Shown here: positions 12,345 to 19,040 of the stretch, in pieces
Numbering within the stretch: the stretch's first letter is position 1
Layout: each line of letters begins with the position of its first letter
Source of the DNA: Microgenomates group bacterium
GTDB taxonomy: Bacteria > Patescibacteriota > Microgenomatia > UBA12405
DNA length: 64,000 nt
NCBI GenBank assembly: GCA_049303675.1
Contig: JBAQNJ010000001.1
Location: 600,711-664,710 of the forward strand
Reading direction: 5' to 3'
Position numbers and translations under genes: made by a program
The notes under the pieces: model-generated
Database searches by the model: none
Told to the model about the DNA's origin: nothing
Seen by the model: only the letters and a program-made list of their open reading frames with translations

Positions 12345-13148
12345 ATGAAATCATTAGCCAGTCGTCATCAGCTTTATACTGCCTATTTACTGGCTACTCT
12401 TGCTCTTGTTTTACCCCTAATTGGCTATCAGACAATTTTTTCTTCCAAAGCTGCCCCAGTTACACCACCCATCACCCCTCCGATCACTCCTATTCCAACG
12501 CTATTTCCTCAAAGCATTACTGTTATTACTCCCACCGAGGGAGACATAATCCACCTTGGCAAAATTTATGTCATCAAATGGCAGGCCCTGACTCCCAGTG
12601 CTACCTTTGTCATCACTCTGCGCAATGATCGAGGTGAATCTACCATGATTGCCACCACCAAGCGTCCCGACAATTTTAGTTGGCGGGTATCAGTCCCCAG
12701 CACTTTGTTGGACCGCAGTCAATATTTTCAAATAATGGTTTCCAACACAGTCAACCTTAATCAGGTTAGTGGTCTTAGTGGCAAATTCACTATCACCCCA
12801 GTGAACCATCCTCCAGTTATCAATCTCGCCACCCCAGTCAACTTTCGTTACAACCAATACTTCTCTCTGCCATTTACTATGACCGATAGCGACCAAGACA
12901 AAATAAATGTCTTTATTACTAATCTTCCCAAAACAGTCAAATATATTTTGACTGATTCCATCGATGGTCAAGTATCGGGACAAATATTTGGGACAGTCTC
13001 CTCGCCGGCAACTATTATTATCAAGGCCACCGACAACTATGGTGGCATAACCAAGCGAAATCTAATTCTCAAACAATTAATTACTCCCACTCCTACTCCT
13101 TCGCCTAGCCGTGCCCCTACCCCGACTCCAATTAGGTTACCCTTATAA
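12345..13148 (+). CDS. hypothetical secreted protein with Pro/Thr-rich linkers
   Basis: Signal-peptide-like N-terminus, PVTPPITPPITPIPT near the N-terminus and TPTPTPSPSRAPTPTP at the C-terminus, flanking a beta-rich middle region. Confidence 0.5.
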   Translation: MKSLASRHQLYTAYLLATLALVLPLIGYQTIFSSKAAPVTPPITPPITPIPTLFPQSITVITPTEGDIIHLGKIYVIKWQALTPSATFVITLRNDRGESTMIATTKRPDNFSWRVSVPSTLLDRSQYFQIMVSNTVNLNQVSGLSGKFTITPVNHPPVINLATPVNFRYNQYFSLPFTMTDSDQDKINVFITNLPKTVKYILTDSIDGQVSGQIFGTVSSPATIIIKATDNYGGITKRNLILKQLITPTPTPSPSRAPTPTPIRLPL

Positions 13149-13394: not shown

Positions 13395-15779
13395 CTACAT
13401 CTTCTCCAGCGTTTCAATACCTAGCAAGTTCAATCCAGTTTTGAGTATTCTAGCGCTCACTGCGGTCAAAAATAGTCGCCTTTCCTCTTCCGGTTCACCA
13501 ATTATCCGGCACTTGGCATAAAACTCATTATATTTTCTGGCGAGGTTGAGGAGATATTCAGCGATAACTGCTGGCGAGTATCGCTCTGCCGCCTCCACAA
13601 TTTTTTCATTAAAAATATAAAAATATCGCAGCAGCGGCATTTCATTCTCATCAAACCCCTCAAGTTTTGTTTTTTTATTTTTTACTTTTGTCTTTTGTAG
13701 CACGCTGGTACAGCGTGCAAAAGTATATTGTAAATATGGTCCACTATTTCCATTCAAATCAATTGATTTTTTTATATCAAAGATACTATTTTGAGTCGGG
13801 TCGCTTCTTAAAACTGAAAATTTAACCGCTCCTATGGTTACTTTTTCCGCCACCTCATCTTTGTTTTCGACACCTTCCTTAATCAATTTTCTTACCTCAT
13901 CTTTAGTTTCATCCAAAATACTATCAACTGTAACAATGTCTCCAGTTCTTGAAGACATTTTTTTACCTACCAAATTTACCATTCCCATTGGCAGATGATA
14001 TTGTCGATCTTTATACCACGGATCCAATAACTCCAGAGCCTGAATCACCACCCTAAAGTAGCCGGATTGTTCATTTCCGACTACATGAATATTTTTATCA
14101 TATGCAAATTCCTTTCTCTGGGCCACTGCCAGCCCCATTTCTTTACCTTCATATGTCACCGTTCCGGCTCCGGTAATAAACACCCGCTTGTGTAATCCAT
14201 ACTTGCTACCGTCAAATACAATAGCTCCCTCATCTCCTTTTTCAAAAACTTTTCCCAAATTATCTAATACAATTTGTTTCCCTATTTCCGATATCTGACT
14301 CTCAAAAAATAAACTGTCAAACTTGGTGTAAAATCTGGCGTAAAATTCTTCATAATAATTCAGGCTCCACTGTCTAGTTGTTTGGTACAAACCCCAAATT
14401 GATTTATCTTTTTGATATAGCTTTTGATTAATCTCATCAATTTCAGCCTTATTTTCATTTTCATAATCAGTGCATCCTAATGCGTAAGCTTTACCCAAAA
14501 AATGGGCCTTTTCTGCGTTAGTTTTTTTCTGCCAGCTTTCCAAGTCTTCGTTATTCGCCTTAAATAATTTCATCACTCCCCAAAGCGCTTTAGCCACATG
14601 CGGTCCAATATCACCCTGGTAATTAGCCCTAAATACTTTCGCTCCGGTAGTTTCAAATATCCTTCCCAAAGACTCCCCTGTGATCAATGTTCTCATGTGC
14701 CCCACATGCAATTCTTTGTGGGTATTCGGGTGGGCAAATTCCACCATCACTTTCTTTTTAGCGTTTAACTGACTTAGCTCATTCTTAAATTTTTCATTTA
14801 AAATATTTTCTGCCTCTTCCACCAACACATTATTTTTTATCCAAATATTAGAAAATCCAGCCACCTTATCTACTTTTTCAACAATATCAAGATTTAACAA
14901 ATCAAAATTTCCCCTAACGGCATAGTCCCCAAACTTTTCCACTGTTGGGTGATTAACAGCAGCTTTTGTGGCTTCAAAAATTTGTTTTGCTAGAAAATAA
15001 TATTTTTTTTCTTGTTTAATCTGTACTGGTGTCTCTTGTGGTTGCCACTCCTCAATATTTTTAGTTACAAAATCAATTTCTGCCACCGAATGATCTCTGT
15101 CCAGCCACAAAATTTCACTTTTACCTCCAAACAATTCTTTAACTTTTGATACAAATTCCTCAGCTGAATTTTTAATCAAGTCATTATTAACACCCTTAAA
15201 TCCATCCATCACGAAATATCCGTTTTTAGAGCCGGAAGTTAATTTCGTTCTTTCACACTGTCTCCAATTCAAAGCCCTCGTCGACAAATCTTTATCATCA
15301 CCCCACACCAATTCTCCCTTGACCGCTTCTTTACTTTTTTTGCCACCAATTGGAAACCACTTTTCCCCACCATTGGCGAAAAACAATCTAAAGTTCCCAT
15401 ATACCGTATCCAAATCCTCACCACCAAATGGTGTGGACTTGGCAATACTAAAACCATTGTACAGATTTACCATTGGATTAATATTTGGTATTTGTCCGCC
15501 TTCCAAAACTCTGCGGGACAAGGCTACATGAGCCGGCATAAATACTTTGGGATCAGATCCAAAGTCACTAAAACACTTTTCGTATGCAGTGACATTTTCA
15601 AGCTCATTAAAATTCTGTAAAGTAAATTTATTCCTCAATGCCACTTCCGAATTTCTCAAAAATTCCAGAGCATCTGCGACTGATTTATGATTATCAAATC
15701 CCAGAATAATAGGTATCGCCACCACCAAATCCGGAAATTTTTCAAATACTTTTTTATCAACTATAAATTTCATACACAT
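13395..15779 (-). CDS. argS: arginyl-tRNA synthetase with an N-terminal B3/4-like domain fusion
   Basis: Class I core with the HIGH-region PNTHKELHVGHMRTL, an ArgRS N-terminal add-on domain, and a DALR-type C-terminus ending LLGIETLEKM. The extra ~210 N-terminal residues resemble the B3/4 tRNA-binding/editing fold (NINPMVNLYNGFSIAKSTPFGGEDLDTVYGNFRLFFANGGE). Confidence 0.85.
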   Translation of the reverse strand: MCMKFIVDKKVFEKFPDLVVAIPIILGFDNHKSVADALEFLRNSEVALRNKFTLQNFNELENVTAYEKCFSDFGSDPKVFMPAHVALSRRVLEGGQIPNINPMVNLYNGFSIAKSTPFGGEDLDTVYGNFRLFFANGGEKWFPIGGKKSKEAVKGELVWGDDKDLSTRALNWRQCERTKLTSGSKNGYFVMDGFKGVNNDLIKNSAEEFVSKVKELFGGKSEILWLDRDHSVAEIDFVTKNIEEWQPQETPVQIKQEKKYYFLAKQIFEATKAAVNHPTVEKFGDYAVRGNFDLLNLDIVEKVDKVAGFSNIWIKNNVLVEEAENILNEKFKNELSQLNAKKKVMVEFAHPNTHKELHVGHMRTLITGESLGRIFETTGAKVFRANYQGDIGPHVAKALWGVMKLFKANNEDLESWQKKTNAEKAHFLGKAYALGCTDYENENKAEIDEINQKLYQKDKSIWGLYQTTRQWSLNYYEEFYARFYTKFDSLFFESQISEIGKQIVLDNLGKVFEKGDEGAIVFDGSKYGLHKRVFITGAGTVTYEGKEMGLAVAQRKEFAYDKNIHVVGNEQSGYFRVVIQALELLDPWYKDRQYHLPMGMVNLVGKKMSSRTGDIVTVDSILDETKDEVRKLIKEGVENKDEVAEKVTIGAVKFSVLRSDPTQNSIFDIKKSIDLNGNSGPYLQYTFARCTSVLQKTKVKNKKTKLEGFDENEMPLLRYFYIFNEKIVEAAERYSPAVIAEYLLNLARKYNEFYAKCRIIGEPEEERRLFLTAVSARILKTGLNLLGIETLEKM

Positions 15780-15786
15780 ATTATAT

Positions 15787-16869
15787 CTAATACTTCAATA
15801 ACTTATTAAACCTTAATACATTTGACTCCACATATTTTTTGGCCATCAATATTTCCTCAACCCCGATCCACTCGTCCTTTGTATGCGCCTTAGCGCCGCC
15901 ATGACATATAGAAAATACCGGAGCGTACTGGCAAAGATAATTAGCGTCACTACTGGCATACATTGTTTCTGCTCTAAACTCTACGCCGCAATCTATTGCT
16001 GCCAATCGTAAAATTTTAAGTAGTTTAGAATCATTTTTTGCCATCCACACCGGCACTCCACTATGTTCTAAGTATGTCAATTTATAGGTGGAGTGACTAT
16101 CCGCACAAACCCTATTCACCAGTGAGTCTAATTTTTCAAAGTTAAGTTTCAAGCTCTGATTATCTATAGATCTCATCTCTCCAATTATTTTGACATAGTC
16201 TGACACTACATTAGTTGCCCCGCCACCTTCGATCTTACCGACATTGCATGTATTATTATTCTCATCCTTTCCTTGTTTTATTAGGCTAATAACCTTAGCG
16301 GCGATTTCAATGGCATTAACACCATCTTCCGGATGTTTGGCCGCGTGGGCAGCCTTTCCATATATATCCAGTTCAAAAACAATCTGTCCCATTCCCGCAT
16401 TGTTGACAGTCCCCACCGGTTCAGAACCATCAATGTTTAAAATTAATTTGGGACAATATTTTCCAATATCAGCCTTGGCTGAGCTCATTACACCAGCTTC
16501 TTCATTGGCCGTAAATATTAGCCCACAATTATCCAAAACCAGAGTGTTTGTAGCCATATATACTAATATGGCTACGCCCACCTTATTGTCAGCTCCCAGT
16601 ATAGTGGTGCCGTCACTTTTGATTATCTGTCCCTCTATGATCGGCGTTACCATCTCGCCAACTTGTTGAACAGTGTCCAGATGTGCCGTCAGCCAAATAC
16701 TCGGTCGAATTTTTTTAAATGCCAACAAATTGCCGCCGCTATCTATTTCTGTCTGCCAGCAGGATTGGTGCAGTTTTTCCTGAATAATATGTTTTATATT
16801 ATCTTCCCCACCCGACGGAGAGGCTATTTTGACCAATTCTATAAATAAGTCGATTAGTTCACTTTTCAT
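15787..16869 (-). CDS. M20-family metallopeptidase (PepT/tripeptidase-like)
   Basis: The metal-binding motifs AHLDTVQ and GADNKVGVA are arranged as in M20 peptidases. Confidence 0.6.
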   Translation of the reverse strand: MKSELIDLFIELVKIASPSGGEDNIKHIIQEKLHQSCWQTEIDSGGNLLAFKKIRPSIWLTAHLDTVQQVGEMVTPIIEGQIIKSDGTTILGADNKVGVAILVYMATNTLVLDNCGLIFTANEEAGVMSSAKADIGKYCPKLILNIDGSEPVGTVNNAGMGQIVFELDIYGKAAHAAKHPEDGVNAIEIAAKVISLIKQGKDENNNTCNVGKIEGGGATNVVSDYVKIIGEMRSIDNQSLKLNFEKLDSLVNRVCADSHSTYKLTYLEHSGVPVWMAKNDSKLLKILRLAAIDCGVEFRAETMYASSDANYLCQYAPVFSICHGGAKAHTKDEWIGVEEILMAKKYVESNVLRFNKLLKY

Positions 16870-17491
16870 TATTAGTATTTAATAAATAAACTTTGCAGCC
16901 ACAGTTGCCCCCACATCGCAAAAAACATCCAGACTCGTTATCAGGTAGAACTTCAACTGGTGGGCAAGCATCTCCCAAAGAAGGTAAGTTTTGTCGCACT
17001 GATACCATCGGTTCTTCTTCAAACCCCAACTTAGTCATAATACCCCGGCTCTTGCTGGTGGCTTCAGTAAATCCCACAAACTGCCACTCAGGATATTTTT
17101 CTGCCGCCATTTTAATCATCAGTTTTTTCATGACCGAGTTAATTCCCTTACCGGTAAATGCCTTCGCCGTGAGAGCAGATCGTAGTTCGCAACAGTTAAT
17201 TGTTGGCCACAGCCCCAATCCTTGAAATGCTACCACCCTACCCACTTCGTCTTTGGCAACTAGTCCATTCCCCATTTGTACAAACCCAGAAATTGTACTA
17301 TTGGCTTCTTTTCCATTTCCCACTCCAACTAGTGCCTCCTGACCCATGACTAAACTTACAATTTCCTCAACTTCGTTGACGGTAGCTAGCATTACTGTCA
17401 CACCAGCGCCAACCAAGGTGACACATCCATGGTTTTGCCACTCTTGCCAGAGGTCAGGCGGTATTTCCCAGTGTTTTACTTTTTCACTCAT
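16859..17491 (-). CDS. GNAT-like acetyltransferase with Cys-rich C-terminal tail
   Basis: GNAT-like acetyl-CoA motif region FTGKGINSVMKKLM; the C-terminus CFLRCGGNCGCKVY suggests a metal-binding tail. Confidence 0.4.
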   Translation of the reverse strand: MSEKVKHWEIPPDLWQEWQNHGCVTLVGAGVTVMLATVNEVEEIVSLVMGQEALVGVGNGKEANSTISGFVQMGNGLVAKDEVGRVVAFQGLGLWPTINCCELRSALTAKAFTGKGINSVMKKLMIKMAAEKYPEWQFVGFTEATSKSRGIMTKLGFEEEPMVSVRQNLPSLGDACPPVEVLPDNESGCFLRCGGNCGCKVYLLNTNNEK

Positions 17492-17504: not shown

Positions 17505-17570
17505 TAATTAAATAAAAAGCCCCTTCGACCCCGAAAAAAATTTCGGGACCAAAGGGGCCTTTTAGATAAT
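17505..17570. other. nested perfect hairpin flanked by T/A runs (bidirectional terminator-like), part of a structured 265-bp intergenic region
   Basis: AAAAAGCCCCTT-CGACCCCGAAAaaaaTTTCGGGACC-AAAGGGGCCTTTT. Additional stems further 3': CCGCCAttatgatGTGGCGG and CCTCAAAT...ATTTGAGG. Confidence 0.4.
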
Positions 17571-17756
17571 AGGCGATACCACCCTTCTTCAACTCCTCAA
17601 ATAAAAATCCGCCATTATGATGTGGCGGAGTTCAACTGAAATTTGAGGAATCCTCATTAATTTTCAGCGCTCCGTTGCCGACACGCCTTGCTCATTTAAC
17701 AGTTTGCTTCTGTATCCCATTTTGGGGATCACCTCTTCGGGCGCGACTCCGAATTA

Positions 17757-19040
17757 ATGGTTTATAAAAATATTATAGCCCATAATACAAGTATGTCAAC
17801 TAGTCAAATCAGCCAATATCTAATACAATCAACTATGTTATATACACCCTCTCAAAAAATTCTCGACAATTATGCCCGAGTTCTGATCAATTATGGACTC
17901 AATGGCGGGCGGGGGATTAGGACTGGGGAGGTGGTTTTCTTAGAAGTCCCCGAGAGTGCCAAACCCCTACTGCTTTCCTTATACAAAGTCGTTCTCGAGT
18001 CCGGTGGTCATCCAATTATCCAATACCTCCCCGATGAAATTGACTCCCATTTTTTTACCCACGCCTCTGCCGAGCAAATAAATTATTTCCCCGCCAAGTT
18101 TCTCAAAGGCAAAATTTCTGAGGCCGACCACTTTGTCCGCATCTTAGCCGAGACCAATTTACACGAACTCGAAGGTATCGACCCCCACAAAATAATGCAG
18201 AAAAATTCCGCCCTCAAACCTTATCTCGATTGGCGCCAGCGTAAAGAATCAAAAGGCCGGTTTTCTTGGACTCTTGGTCTCTATCCCACTCCTGCCATGG
18301 CCCGCGAAGCCCATATGTCCCTGAGGACCTGCTGGCAACAAGTTGTCCAAGCCTGCTATCTCGACAATCCTCAACCCATAAAAAAATGGCAGCAGATTGA
18401 ATCAAACATTAAAACAGTCATCACTAAATTAAACGAACTGCCAATCATCAGTCTAAATATAAAAGCAGCGGGGACAGATTTGACCATTGGTTTGGATAAA
18501 AATCGTCGCTGGCTTGGTGGCGGTGGCTGTAATATACCCTCATTTGAAATATTCATTTCCCCAGATTTTCACCGTACTAGTGGTCATATTTCTTTCAACC
18601 TGCCACTTTATCGCTATGGAAATGAGATTAGAGATATTTATTTAGAATTTATCGATGGACATGTCGTCAAGAGTACGGCTTCAAAAGGCGAATCTGTTCT
18701 CCGTAAAATGATTGCCACTCCCAATGCTGATTTAGTCGGCGAATTTTCATTGACTGATCGGCGTTTTTCCCATATTAATCGTTTTATGGCCGAGACACTT
18801 TATGATGAAAATTTTGGTGGACGGTACGGCAATACCCATCTAGCATTGGGCATGTCTTTTCACGAATGCTATCCACATTCTCAGTCAAAGTTAACGGCTA
18901 CAGATTGGCAAAATCTGGGCTACAGCGATTCGGTAATCCATACCGATATTATCAGCACCTCCAATCGTCGGGTTGTGGCCACTCTCGCCGACGGCTCCCA
19001 AAATGTTATTTATCAAAATGGTCAGTTTACTCTGCTATAA
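17757..19040 (+). CDS. aminopeptidase, M29 (AmpS/PepS) family
   Basis: N-terminal LDNYARVLINYGLNGGRGIRTGEVVFLEVP and overall length fit the M29 family. The true start may be the internal Met at 17793 or 17835. Confidence 0.65.
   Translation: MVYKNIIAHNTSMSTSQISQYLIQSTMLYTPSQKILDNYARVLINYGLNGGRGIRTGEVVFLEVPESAKPLLLSLYKVVLESGGHPIIQYLPDEIDSHFFTHASAEQINYFPAKFLKGKISEADHFVRILAETNLHELEGIDPHKIMQKNSALKPYLDWRQRKESKGRFSWTLGLYPTPAMAREAHMSLRTCWQQVVQACYLDNPQPIKKWQQIESNIKTVITKLNELPIISLNIKAAGTDLTIGLDKNRRWLGGGGCNIPSFEIFISPDFHRTSGHISFNLPLYRYGNEIRDIYLEFIDGHVVKSTASKGESVLRKMIATPNADLVGEFSLTDRRFSHINRFMAETLYDENFGGRYGNTHLALGMSFHECYPHSQSKLTATDWQNLGYSDSVIHTDIISTSNRRVVATLADGSQNVIYQNGQFTLL

Follow-up and report, generated by a model that had tools for sequence, protein, structure and literature searches.

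Arginyl-tRNA synthetase (ArgRS) is a standard example of an aminoacyl-tRNA synthetase without an editing domain. In the original prediction for the locus described here, ArgRS was taken to be an enzyme for which no need of editing is known; this view is out of date, since it has been known since 2023 that ArgRS mischarges canavanine, a toxic mimic of arginine, and that the free-standing B3/4 protein CtdA edits the resulting Can-tRNAArg (PMC10018355, PMC12449066). Canavanine is the only substrate that has been shown for the CtdA family. At the time of the CtdA discovery paper in 2023, no editing domain was known in ArgRS (PMC10018355), and the CtdA papers that followed know the family only in stand-alone form. 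Mutagenesis revealed that N105, G116 and Q173 are required in CtdA, and E118 and I189 are also pocket residues (CtdA papers, including PMC12449066). Furthermore, Cys166 does not vary within the characterised CtdA-1 clade and tunes the specificity for canavanine over arginine; according to the CtdA authors, size rather than chemistry matters at this position. CtdA also possesses a helical insert (alpha2-alpha4), which is particular to this protein (PMC12449066).

The window, that is the whole 64-kb stretch of DNA that was analysed and that stems from a tiny-genome member of the Patescibacteria, contains one argS-like locus only, and the ArgRS encoded there carries a B3/4 module at its N-terminus (Table 1). 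The 794-aa argS open reading frame of the original prediction (13395..15779, minus strand) exists and is uninterrupted by stop codons, and both the peptide strings and the HVGH motif quoted from it are present. All homologues start at the third codon of this frame (MKF...); thus, the likely start is at 15773 and the protein probably comprises 792 aa, whereas the longest ORF starts two codons earlier. The 792-aa product is identical to the NCBI protein P0001, 'arginine--tRNA ligase [Microgenomates group bacterium]', and its full-length AF2 model reaches a pLDDT of 91.2.

Table 1. Features of the fused argS locus and its surroundings; amino acid positions refer to the 792-aa protein.
Feature	Position	Strand	Remark
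Predicted T-box leader with ultrashort Stem I	17550..17766	(-)	RF00230; upstream of operon orf210 - M20 peptidase - B3/4-argS
orf210	16859-17491	(-)	no family match; between T-box and argS
PepT-like M20 peptidase	15787-16869	(-)	between T-box and argS
CtdA-like B3/4 domain + ArgRS gene	13395..15773	(-)	complete, 792 aa plus stop
CtdA-type B3/4 domain, putative aminoacyl-tRNA(Arg) deacylase (editing) module	15078..15773	(-)	aa 1-232
Predicted aminoacyl-binding pocket stretch	15210..15467	(-)	mapped onto S. enterica CtdA N105/G116/E118/C166/Q173/I189 (PMC12449066)
Pocket N106	15456-15458	(-)	CtdA N105
Pocket G117	15423-15425	(-)	CtdA G116
Pocket E119	15417-15419	(-)	CtdA E118
Pocket T165	15279-15281	(-)	CtdA C166
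Pocket Q172	15258-15260	(-)	CtdA Q173
Pocket V188	15210-15212	(-)	CtdA I189
Inter-domain linker, probably flexible	14997..15077	(-)	aa 233-259, ~27 residues
Shortened ArgRS add-1 (N-terminal tRNA D-loop-binding) domain	14799..14996	(-)	aa 260-325
ArgRS class I catalytic core	13776..14798	(-)	aa 326-666; HVGH 14697-14708, KMSS 13950-13961
DALR anticodon-binding domain	13398..13775	(-)	aa 667-792; Pfam DALR_1

The B3/4 gene and argS are separate neighbours in related Patescibacteria and sometimes overlap by 4 nt, so that one indel could fuse them; two adjacent genes of this MAG could therefore have been merged by a fault in sequencing or assembly or by loss of a stop codon. However, the reading frame runs uninterrupted across a 27-residue linker, which is also present in homologues, the gene sits on a contig of 998,417 bp, and both flanks of the domain junction are modelled with confidence in the full-length prediction. 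Of the 120 best database matches, 60 have the same B3/4-ArgRS architecture; over the whole collected set, drawn from NCBI, JGI, ENA and Logan assemblies, it recurs in at least 91 sequences. Among 79 loci of GTDB species representatives, which come from independent assemblies, 26 carry the fusion, and these are spread across Patescibacteria. A mis-assembly joining two genes was ruled out by this comparison rather than by reads, and the suspicion that the ORF might really be two genes was not borne out, as the same junction recurs in many independent assemblies. The artefact explanation is effectively refuted, its residual probability being negligible, and the ArgRS with an N-terminal B3/4 module is confirmed as real.

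The original prediction had assigned residues ~1-215 to the B3/4 fold of PheT and free-standing proteins. The fold as such was recovered by the proposed Pfam search and structural comparison: the B3_4 model (PF03483) matches residues 67-197 (794-aa numbering) with an E-value of 2.9e-17 and 63 bits against a cutoff of 29, and the isolated domain is modelled by AF2 as a B3/4 fold with a pLDDT of 89.5. Its closest relation, however, is CtdA and not PheT. In a phmmer search, the domain matched the CtdA structures 9f7e (E=4.6e-21) and 9mkl (E=7e-20), and Foldseek yielded TM-scores of 0.84-0.87 to CtdA versus 0.53-0.61 to PheRS-beta. The Foldseek alignment spans 228-230 columns of the 226-231-residue CtdA chains, i.e. 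the whole chain, and the CtdA-specific helical insert is present in the model (helices 32-49, 52-56, 59-70 and 81-90). In NCBIfam, the isolated domain matched no model, that of pheT included, and it does not follow the PheRS-type pattern (E. coli R244, H265, G318 and E334 in a PheT context), since the G116 and Q173 positions are those of CtdA. Judged by sequence and predicted fold, the module is a full-length CtdA homologue, and a PheT-type editing domain was rejected. Identity to the characterised CtdAs is only 30-33%. Across the fusions, the N-terminal domains share 31-74% identity, often exceeding that of the catalytic core, and the domain appears to be under strong constraint.

Five of the six CtdA pocket residues are kept, if Val is counted at the position of I189; the sixth, Cys166, which is the hallmark of the CtdA-1 clade, is replaced by Thr165. 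Among 92 ArgRS-fused domains, the positions of N105 and G116 are occupied by Asn and Gly in every case (92/92 each) and that of E118 by Glu in 91/92. More variation is seen at the positions of Q173 (Gln in 75, Glu in 16), I189 (Ile in 53, Val in 36) and C166, where Thr (45) and Cys (44) occur in nearly equal numbers. Thr165 lies in the context STRALNWRQ, as compared to TCRRWNWRQ in CtdA, so that 'RxW' has become 'RAL' with an exchange of Trp for Leu; this variant is found in about half of the fusions. The replacement of Cys166 by Thr and of RxW by RAL suggests that the substrate may not be canavanine.

The downstream part of the protein is, to judge from its sequence, a genuine ArgRS. It matches the argS equivalog TIGR00456 with 310.1 bits (cutoff 261.65), and the HVGH catalytic core and the DALR domain of the original prediction were both recovered by Pfam: tRNA-synt_1d covers residues 325-668 (E=1.9e-36) and DALR_1 residues 683-794 (E=2.4e-25; both in 794-aa numbering), with HVGH at aa 356-359 and KMSS(R) at aa 605-609. 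In an alignment with yeast ArgRS (1bs2, E=8e-42), the counterparts of E148, N153 and Y347 are kept and D351 is replaced by Glu; from the yeast ArgRS structures, we take these four to be arginine-binding residues. The model aligns to solved ArgRS structures with a Foldseek TMt of 0.67-0.80. The add-1 domain, in contrast, is not the normal N-terminal add-on domain that had been assumed. Arg_tRNA_synt_N (PF03485) was the one Pfam model of the proposed search without a match, the TIGR00456 alignment begins only at model position 68, and alignment of the shortened remnant with PF03485-positive homologues revealed a deletion of ~22 residues, which removes the helical segment after 'FGDYAVRG'. In the model, this reduced fold consists of one helix, three strands and one helix (H260-269, E284-287, E298-304, E307-312 and H314-325), and a normal add-1 domain was rejected. 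In the full-length model, low confidence is confined to the linker that precedes add-1 (pLDDT 60-73 for the blocks 241-260 and below 50 for 247-252); this linker is poorly conserved (7-41% identity) and variable in length among homologues.

Expression of the B3/4-argS operon is predicted to be regulated by a T-box leader. The match to RF00230 (39.3 bits, E=2.5e-6) lies below the gathering score of 93, which is attributed to the small size of Stem I, of which only a 5-bp hairpin with a GUCGCG loop is left. The T-box motif GGGTGGTATCGC is located at 17573-17584, a terminator hairpin at 17562-17515 and a perfect promoter (TTGACA-16-TATAAT) at 17799-17772. Shuffled sequences reach hairpin energies at least as good as those of the ultrashort Stem I, the structure of which thus rests on conservation and compensatory changes only. 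Homologous leaders precede the fused argS at four other loci (L070, L025, L024 and L011). That of L070 has a full Stem I with 'GAA-CGC-A' and adjoins tRNA-Arg genes, its specifier being Arg (CGC); for the leader in the window, an Arg (CGC) specifier is probable. The L070 specifier and its tRNA-Arg neighbours suggest that the fused gene is a tRNA(Arg)-responsive housekeeping argS. The two genes between leader and argS are co-directional with argS and together occupy 15787..17491 of the minus strand; synteny around argS is common only to one related Shapirobacteria locus (L024), so that there is no general association of argS with its neighbours, and a functional link to the M20 peptidase, orf210 or an M29 peptidase was rejected.

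In other Patescibacteria, the gene for the same B3/4 domain is not joined to argS but lies immediately ahead of it, often in the order argH-argG-B3/4-argS, and the free-standing orthologues are 50-57% identical to the fused domain. The 4-nt overlap of B3/4 and argS is found inside such operons at the loci L001-L004, and a Clostridia MAG (L080) shows the same adjacency of B3/4 followed by argS. Based on these sequences, we propose that the fusion arose by the joining of two neighbouring operon genes that are still separate in other Patescibacteria. Though linked in other lineages, argG and argH were absent from the 64-kb window in a tblastn search. Around a Streptomyces homologue (L032), a biosynthetic cluster was sought, and the ten ORFs chosen had no Pfam match, probably because wrong frames had been selected in this high-GC sequence.

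What might the fused domain do? Since ArgRS mischarges canavanine and CtdA edits Can-tRNAArg, the fusion has an obvious functional logic, and there is a reasonable likelihood that the B3/4 domain acts as a tethered post-transfer editing domain, which removes arginine analogues wrongly attached to tRNA(Arg). Of the two roles offered by the original prediction, a tRNA-binding or a deacylase add-on, the latter is best supported by the homology to CtdA and the kept pocket, and a role in tRNA binding only is less favoured. Domain identity, fold, pocket conservation and the pattern of fusion and adjacency suggest that the fused ArgRS probably proofreads its own product. In the proposed mechanism, the Rossmann core, whose motifs are intact, would charge tRNA(Arg) and would misattach a near-cognate arginine analogue. 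The tethered B3/4 domain would then capture the aminoacylated CCA end, before release or just after, and the ester bond would be cleaved by hydrolysis in a pocket made up of N106, G117, E119, T165, Q172 and V188, thereby returning free tRNA(Arg). Such post-transfer editing would take place in cis or 'on a leash', with the domain tethered by a probably flexible linker. From homology and context we infer the catalytic activity, the tRNA(Arg) substrate, the non-cognate amino acid and the action in cis or in trans.

Canavanine is a less secure substrate, as Patescibacteria living in groundwater and sediment would not obviously encounter this legume toxin; indeed, the CtdA authors propose further substrates for homologues in organisms without canavanine exposure. 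The same editing architecture might therefore be directed at another arginine look-alike, such as homoarginine, citrulline, ornithine, hydroxy- or methyl-arginines or D-arginine, compounds which could abound with import of arginine or citrulline or with an arginine deiminase-type metabolism. The Thr and Leu exchanges described above fall on and next to the position that tunes specificity in CtdA, and the argG and argH genes with which free-standing orthologues share operons convert citrulline to arginine. However, Thr is near Cys in volume, the property that counts at this position in the view of the CtdA authors, the remaining pocket residues all match CtdA, and no alternative mischarging product of ArgRS is documented in the literature examined. 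Another target than canavanine is thus somewhat unlikely, albeit to be taken seriously. Even less probable, and in our view improbable, is a catalytically silent B3/4 domain that serves as an additional module for tRNA binding, retention or dimerisation and offsets the shortened add-1 domain. B3/4-fold domains bind the tRNA acceptor end in PheRS, add-1 is truncated in the protein studied here and S. enterica CtdA is a dimer (PMC12449066), which would all agree with such a role; however, most fusions retain a full PF03485 add-1 domain, so that compensation cannot explain the family, and unfused ArgRSs of 540 aa have the same add-1 deletion without any B3/4 domain. Moreover, a non-catalytic handle would need neither the observed invariance of the catalytic and pocket residues nor their change with the partner synthetase.

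This dependence on the partner became apparent in sister clades of the B3/4 domain, which are fused to class I LysRS (LysRS-I), class II LysRS (LysRS-II) and TyrRS and differ in their pocket residues. In TyrRS fusions, E118 is replaced by His or Tyr and I189 by Pro, and in LysRS-I fusions, E118 is replaced by Asp, Q173 by Glu and I189 by Tyr. Covariation of the pocket with the fused synthetase fits an amino-acid-specific editing pocket and not a generic tRNA handle. In neighbour-joining trees, the sister of the characterised CtdAs was ArgRS-linked in 27/60 bootstraps, standalone-only in 31/60 and another (Lys/Tyr-linked) in 2/60; the CtdAs thus seem to group with ArgRS-linked or standalone domains rather than with the Lys/Tyr-linked clades, and the split of 27 versus 31 favours neither an ArgRS-linked nor a standalone sister. 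It is quite possible, although we would stop short of calling it likely, that the CtdA-type B3/4 domain is a portable post-transfer editing module, which was recruited independently by fusion or operon linkage by four 'non-editing' synthetases and whose pocket was retuned for each partner. The recruiters would be ArgRS in Patescibacteria, LysRS-I in DPANN-type archaea, LysRS-II in environmental Chlamydiae and Verrucomicrobia, and TyrRS. If this holds true, the gene in the window would give ArgRS its first known case of true editing in cis by a domain of its own, and symbionts that have reduced genomes and import amino acids would face uncatalogued analogues of arginine, lysine and tyrosine. 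The occurrence of one domain family on all these enzymes suggests that editing may be commoner among 'non-editing' synthetases than assumed.

No description of an ArgRS-CtdA fusion was found in the CtdA papers, in AARS Online or by combined literature searches, and thus none of a built-in proofreading domain for ArgRS; 'B3/B4' is unsearchable as a string, and a report may have been missed. In a 2026 deacylase-discovery paper, the only fusion wording refers to an unrelated His6-MBP purification tag on BesG. The fusion and the operon-linked split forms provide independent genomic ('Rosetta-stone') evidence that the B3/4 family works with ArgRS beyond canavanine-exposed bacteria. They also raise the question which arginine analogue threatens the ultra-small, amino-acid-importing Patescibacteria. 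Furthermore, the transfer of the product from a class I synthetase to an appended B3/4 editing site could readily be studied with the fusion, and such enzymes could serve synthetic biology for the deliberate incorporation or exclusion of canavanine and other analogues.

Compared to known systems, the fused domain is closest to the CtdAs of P. canavaninivorans and S. enterica (PDB 9f7e, 9mkl), with which it shares the fold over the whole chain, the insert included, as well as the partner synthetase ArgRS. However, CtdA is a single-domain, stand-alone protein that edits in trans (PMC10018355, PMC12449066, PMC12268091), whereas the domain described here is covalently fused to ArgRS, and its patescibacterial hosts are not among the phyla that a CtdA paper names as main carriers. 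The B3/B4 domain of PheRS beta belongs to the same superfamily and Pfam model and is likewise a post-transfer editing domain inside a synthetase, and its catalytic-water Asn (E. coli N254, corresponding to CtdA N105) is kept in the fused domain. In contrast, H265, G318 and other active-site residues of PheRS are replaced, as in CtdA, the PheRS-specific helices are missing, and identity is only 10-13%; PheRS also belongs to another synthetase class than ArgRS and acts on Tyr/m-Tyr-tRNAPhe. Canonical bacterial and yeast ArgRSs (PDB 1bs2/1f7u, 5yym, 1iq0) have the same order of add-1, Rossmann core (HIGH, KMSK-like MSSR) and DALR domain, but lack the 259 additional N-terminal residues of domain and linker, the ~22-residue shortening of add-1 and the operon with its predicted T-box leader. 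Deacylase modules that are either fused or free depending on the lineage, and whose specificity is tuned to the partner, are also known from AlaRS/ThrRS and AlaX, from the ProRS INS domain and YbaK/ProXp, and from ThrRS and ThrRS-ed; the folds of the AlaX, YbaK/ProXp and ThrRS-ed editing domains, however, are unrelated to B3/4.

The 794-aa argS reading frame of the original prediction is real and uninterrupted. Since all homologues begin at its third codon (MKF...), the gene probably starts at position 15773 and encodes a 792-aa protein, which is identical to an NCBI entry named only 'arginine--tRNA ligase [Microgenomates group bacterium]'. The protein scores above the equivalog cutoff of TIGR00456 (argS), the alignment starting only at model position 68, and the predicted B3_4 match is significant in Pfam (E=2.9e-17), next to tRNA-synt_1d and DALR_1. 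The ArgRS part aligns with yeast ArgRS (E=8e-42) and has HVGH, a KMSS(R) loop and the positions that bind arginine (Glu, Asn, Tyr and an acidic residue). However, the N-terminal add-on (add-1) domain is not the normal one that had been assumed: the Pfam search gave no match to Arg_tRNA_synt_N (PF03485) in the query, in whose add-1 domain ~22 residues are missing, a helical segment found in PF03485-matching homologues. The nearest unfused 540-aa ArgRSs carry the same deletion, which is thus independent of the fusion. In the full-length model (pLDDT 91.2, pTM 0.71), the sole low-confidence stretch, residues ~241-260, is also the least conserved and most length-variable one across homologues. The model has two separate sets of matches, one to ArgRS structures (TMt 0.67-0.80) and one to the canavanyl-tRNA(Arg) deacylase CtdA (TMt 0.79-0.80); no solved chain in the PDB contains both parts.

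The N-terminal domain has the B3/4 fold, as predicted, but is of the CtdA rather than the PheT type. When residues 1-329 were compared with all PDB sequences by phmmer, two matches were meaningful, both to CtdA (9f7e, E=4.6e-21; 9mkl, E=7e-20). Modelled with AlphaFold (pLDDT 89.5), residues 1-230 superimpose on CtdA over its full chain length (TM 0.84-0.87), whereas PheRS-beta chains reach only 0.53-0.61. Judging from this model, a complete CtdA-type module is therefore present, together with the helical insert that sets CtdA apart from the PheRS editing domain. The published pocket of Salmonella enterica CtdA (N105, G116, E118, C166, Q173, I189) corresponds to N106, G117, E119, T165, Q172 and V188 of the query, five of the six being identical or conservative.

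Features of the fused gene, its surroundings and related loci (window positions unless a locus is named; aa, query residues; pocket, positions E118/Q173/I189)
Feature	Position or members	Strand	Remarks
267-aa ORF	12345-13148	plus	
argS ORF	13395-15779	minus	
CtdA-like domain	aa 1-232		
Flexible linker	aa 233-259		
Shortened add-1 domain	aa 260-325		
Rossmann core	aa 326-666		
DALR domain	aa 667-792		
Divergent core segment	13776-14798	minus	
210-aa ORF, M20 peptidase	15787-17491	minus	between T-box and argS
T-box leader region upstream of argS operon	17515-17799	minus	promoter, motif GGGTGGTATCGC, terminator hairpin
M29 aminopeptidase	17757-19040	plus	divergent, upstream
Related leaders	L070 3680-3903; L025 1896-2099; L024 2016-2230; L011 2059-2282		
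Three tRNA-Arg genes	L070 3283-3616		TCT, GCG, TCG
Streptomyces homologue	L032 4001-4693		
ArgRS fusions			pocket E / Q(E) / I(V), same as CtdA
TyrRS fusions, six representatives	P0181, P0223, P0243, P0246, P0272, P0278		pocket H(Y) / Q / P
Class I LysRS fusions, including	P0163, P0171, L060-L062, L074, L084, L085		pocket D / E / Y
Class II LysRS fusions	P0192, P0198, L035, L037, L041, L042, L046, L048, L053, L054, L057-L059, L064, L073		

An assembly artefact joining two genes, a concern raised with the original prediction, is excluded by comparison with homologues: B3_4 and ArgRS occur together in 60 of the 120 best full-length matches (N-domains 31-74% identical to the query) and in 26 of the 79 best loci from a scan of GTDB species representatives, in which 425 genomes hold a relative. 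An exhaustive phmmer search with the N-domain across 1.84 billion cluster representatives found 1,836 matches (E<=1e-3), and the best 150 include about 35 B3/4-ArgRS fusions, whose ArgRS parts are only 27-44% identical to the query. Most of the 26 fusion loci bear Patescibacteria labels (Shapiro-, Woese-, Ames-, Collier-, Dojkabacteria/WS6, Wirthbacteria, Saccharibacteria-labelled and 'Patescibacteria group'); five titles read 'uncultured Gammaproteobacteria' and one just 'bacterium', and these are probably mislabels. Several MAGs titled 'uncultured Gammaproteobacteria' (L014, L015, L017, L019, L021, L027, L056) have clearly Patescibacteria-type genes, and a near-identical unfused ArgRS (P0011) is titled 'Candidatus Methanoperedens sp.'; both titles probably reflect taxonomic mislabelling or mis-binning in public records. 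Two larger proteins were also seen, one with two tandem B3/4 domains ahead of ArgRS (P0143, 1124 aa) and one with a tRNA_bind domain (PF01588) in addition to B3/4-ArgRS (P0078, 972 aa).

Long members of the same CtdA-like family are fused to class I LysRS, class II LysRS or TyrRS. The class I LysRS fusions are mostly archaeal and C-terminal, as in the DPANN-type loci L060-62, L074, L084 and L085, with the domain N-terminal in P0163; the class II LysRS fusions (13 loci) come from environmental Chlamydiae and Verrucomicrobia and are mostly N-terminal. One TyrRS fusion, P0243, has an additional YbaK-like tRNA_edit domain. The N105 and G116 positions are essentially universal across partners, whereas the side-chain-facing positions E118, Q173 and I189 vary with the partner synthetase. 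In a neighbour-joining tree (60 bootstrap replicates), the fused domains sort into partner-specific clades; the two characterised CtdAs, whose exact sister varies among replicates, group with ArgRS-linked or stand-alone domains; just 2 of the 60 replicates place them with the Lys- or Tyr-linked clades. A purely tRNA-binding role of the domain is unlikely, because most fusions retain a full add-1 domain and because the catalytic and pocket residues are invariant and partner-specific.

The best explanation is that the tethered domain acts like CtdA, as a post-transfer editor of the tRNA charged by its own synthetase, the flexible linker allowing it to sample the acceptor end. ArgRS cannot keep canavanine out; Can-tRNA(Arg) is hydrolysed by CtdA, whereas Arg-tRNA(Arg) is protected by ArgRS and EF-Tu (PMC10018355; PMC12449066). 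At the position of the specificity-modulating Cys166 of CtdA, the query has Thr (STRALNWRQ versus TCRRWNWRQ), and ArgRS-fused domains are half Cys, half Thr. The two side chains are of similar volume, and according to the CtdA authors, side-chain size matters most at position 166; deacylase activity with Thr165 is therefore plausible, although the specificity may differ from that of CtdA. The products of argG and argH convert citrulline to arginine; the linkage to these genes and the non-legume habitats leave room for a non-cognate substrate, which may be other than canavanine.

Other Patescibacteria encode free-standing orthologues of the domain (~236 aa, 50-57% identical). The order argH - argG - B3/4 - argS is found in L001-L004, L013 and L014, with a 4-nt overlap between the B3/4 stop and the argS start in all of these loci except L014 (63-nt gap); an 80-aa ORF intervenes in L005-L007 and L016. 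In L021, argH - argG precedes the fused gene, in L081 (Jacksonbacteria) argG - argH - B3/4 lies 1.7 kb upstream of argS, and in L080 (Clostridia MAG) the B3/4 gene ends 7 nt before argS; argG and argH are absent from the 64-kb window. Split forms are nested within the fused clade of the neighbour-joining tree, and the simplest history is that two operon genes with coupled translation have both fused and split. A stand-alone homologue of Streptomyces sp. NPDC020983, 43% identical to the query domain and closer to it than the characterised CtdAs, is nested in the Patescibacteria ArgRS-linked clade; horizontal transfer or a self-resistance gene is possible. Six relatives (P0017, P0019, P0021, P0022, P0023, P0027) share 68-74% (B3/4), 60-73% (add-1 remnant) and 66-74% (DALR) identity with the query, but only 25-27% in the catalytic core (SSPNIAKPFGIGHLRS versus AHPNTHKELHVGHMRT type), which suggests a mosaic ArgRS, two lineages of the enzyme having recombined so that the Rossmann core was replaced.

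Upstream of the operon orf210 - M20 peptidase - argS lies a probable T-box leader with a perfect sigma-70 consensus promoter and a terminator hairpin. The leader scores 39 bits against RF00230 (E=2.5e-6), and the leaders together range from 29 to 62 bits, all below the Rfam gathering threshold of 93. Stem I of the window leader is predicted as only a 5-bp hairpin, whose loop GUCGCG(A/C), holding the Arg codon CGC, is kept in L024, L025 and L011, where the changes in the stem are compensatory. In the homologous L070 leader, Stem I is complete and contains 'GAA-CGC-A', in which the specifier CGC, an Arg codon, is followed by A; the tRNA-Arg genes lie directly upstream of this T-box and fused gene, and tRNA-Arg(GCG) matches the specifier. 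The 210-aa ORF has no family match, the M20 peptidase is PepT-like, and their synteny with argS was seen again in just a single related locus, L024. Should the T-box respond to tRNA(Arg), the M20 peptidase and the M29 aminopeptidase may supply arginine from peptides. The 267-aa ORF has Pro/Thr-rich repeats (TPPITPPITP... N-terminally, PTPTPSPSRAPTPTP C-terminally) and a weak Kre9_KNH Ig-like match, and its product is probably secreted or at the cell surface. Every 2-kb bin of the window (1-64000) has a negative GC skew (cumulative -5.8), so the window lies within a single replichore with a C-rich plus strand.

The first genomes of Patescibacteria (candidate phyla radiation) already brought fused proteins into public databases, GW2011 Woesebacteria and Roizmanbacteria entries among them, under no other name than 'arginine--tRNA ligase'. 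Targeted literature searches found no ArgRS-CtdA-type fusion, AARS Online lists no such domain under ArgRS, and neither the discovery paper nor the 2025 CtdA papers mention CtdA fusions. The main bacterial carriers of CtdA, according to a 2025 NAR survey, are Actinobacteria, Firmicutes, Bacteroidetes and Proteobacteria. According to the discovery paper, no editing domain was known in ArgRS (PMC10018355), and the 2025 papers describe CtdA as a single-domain, stand-alone deacylase. The architecture, which appears to be undescribed, joins this known trans-editing enzyme to a known synthetase and would give ArgRS a cis-editing domain.
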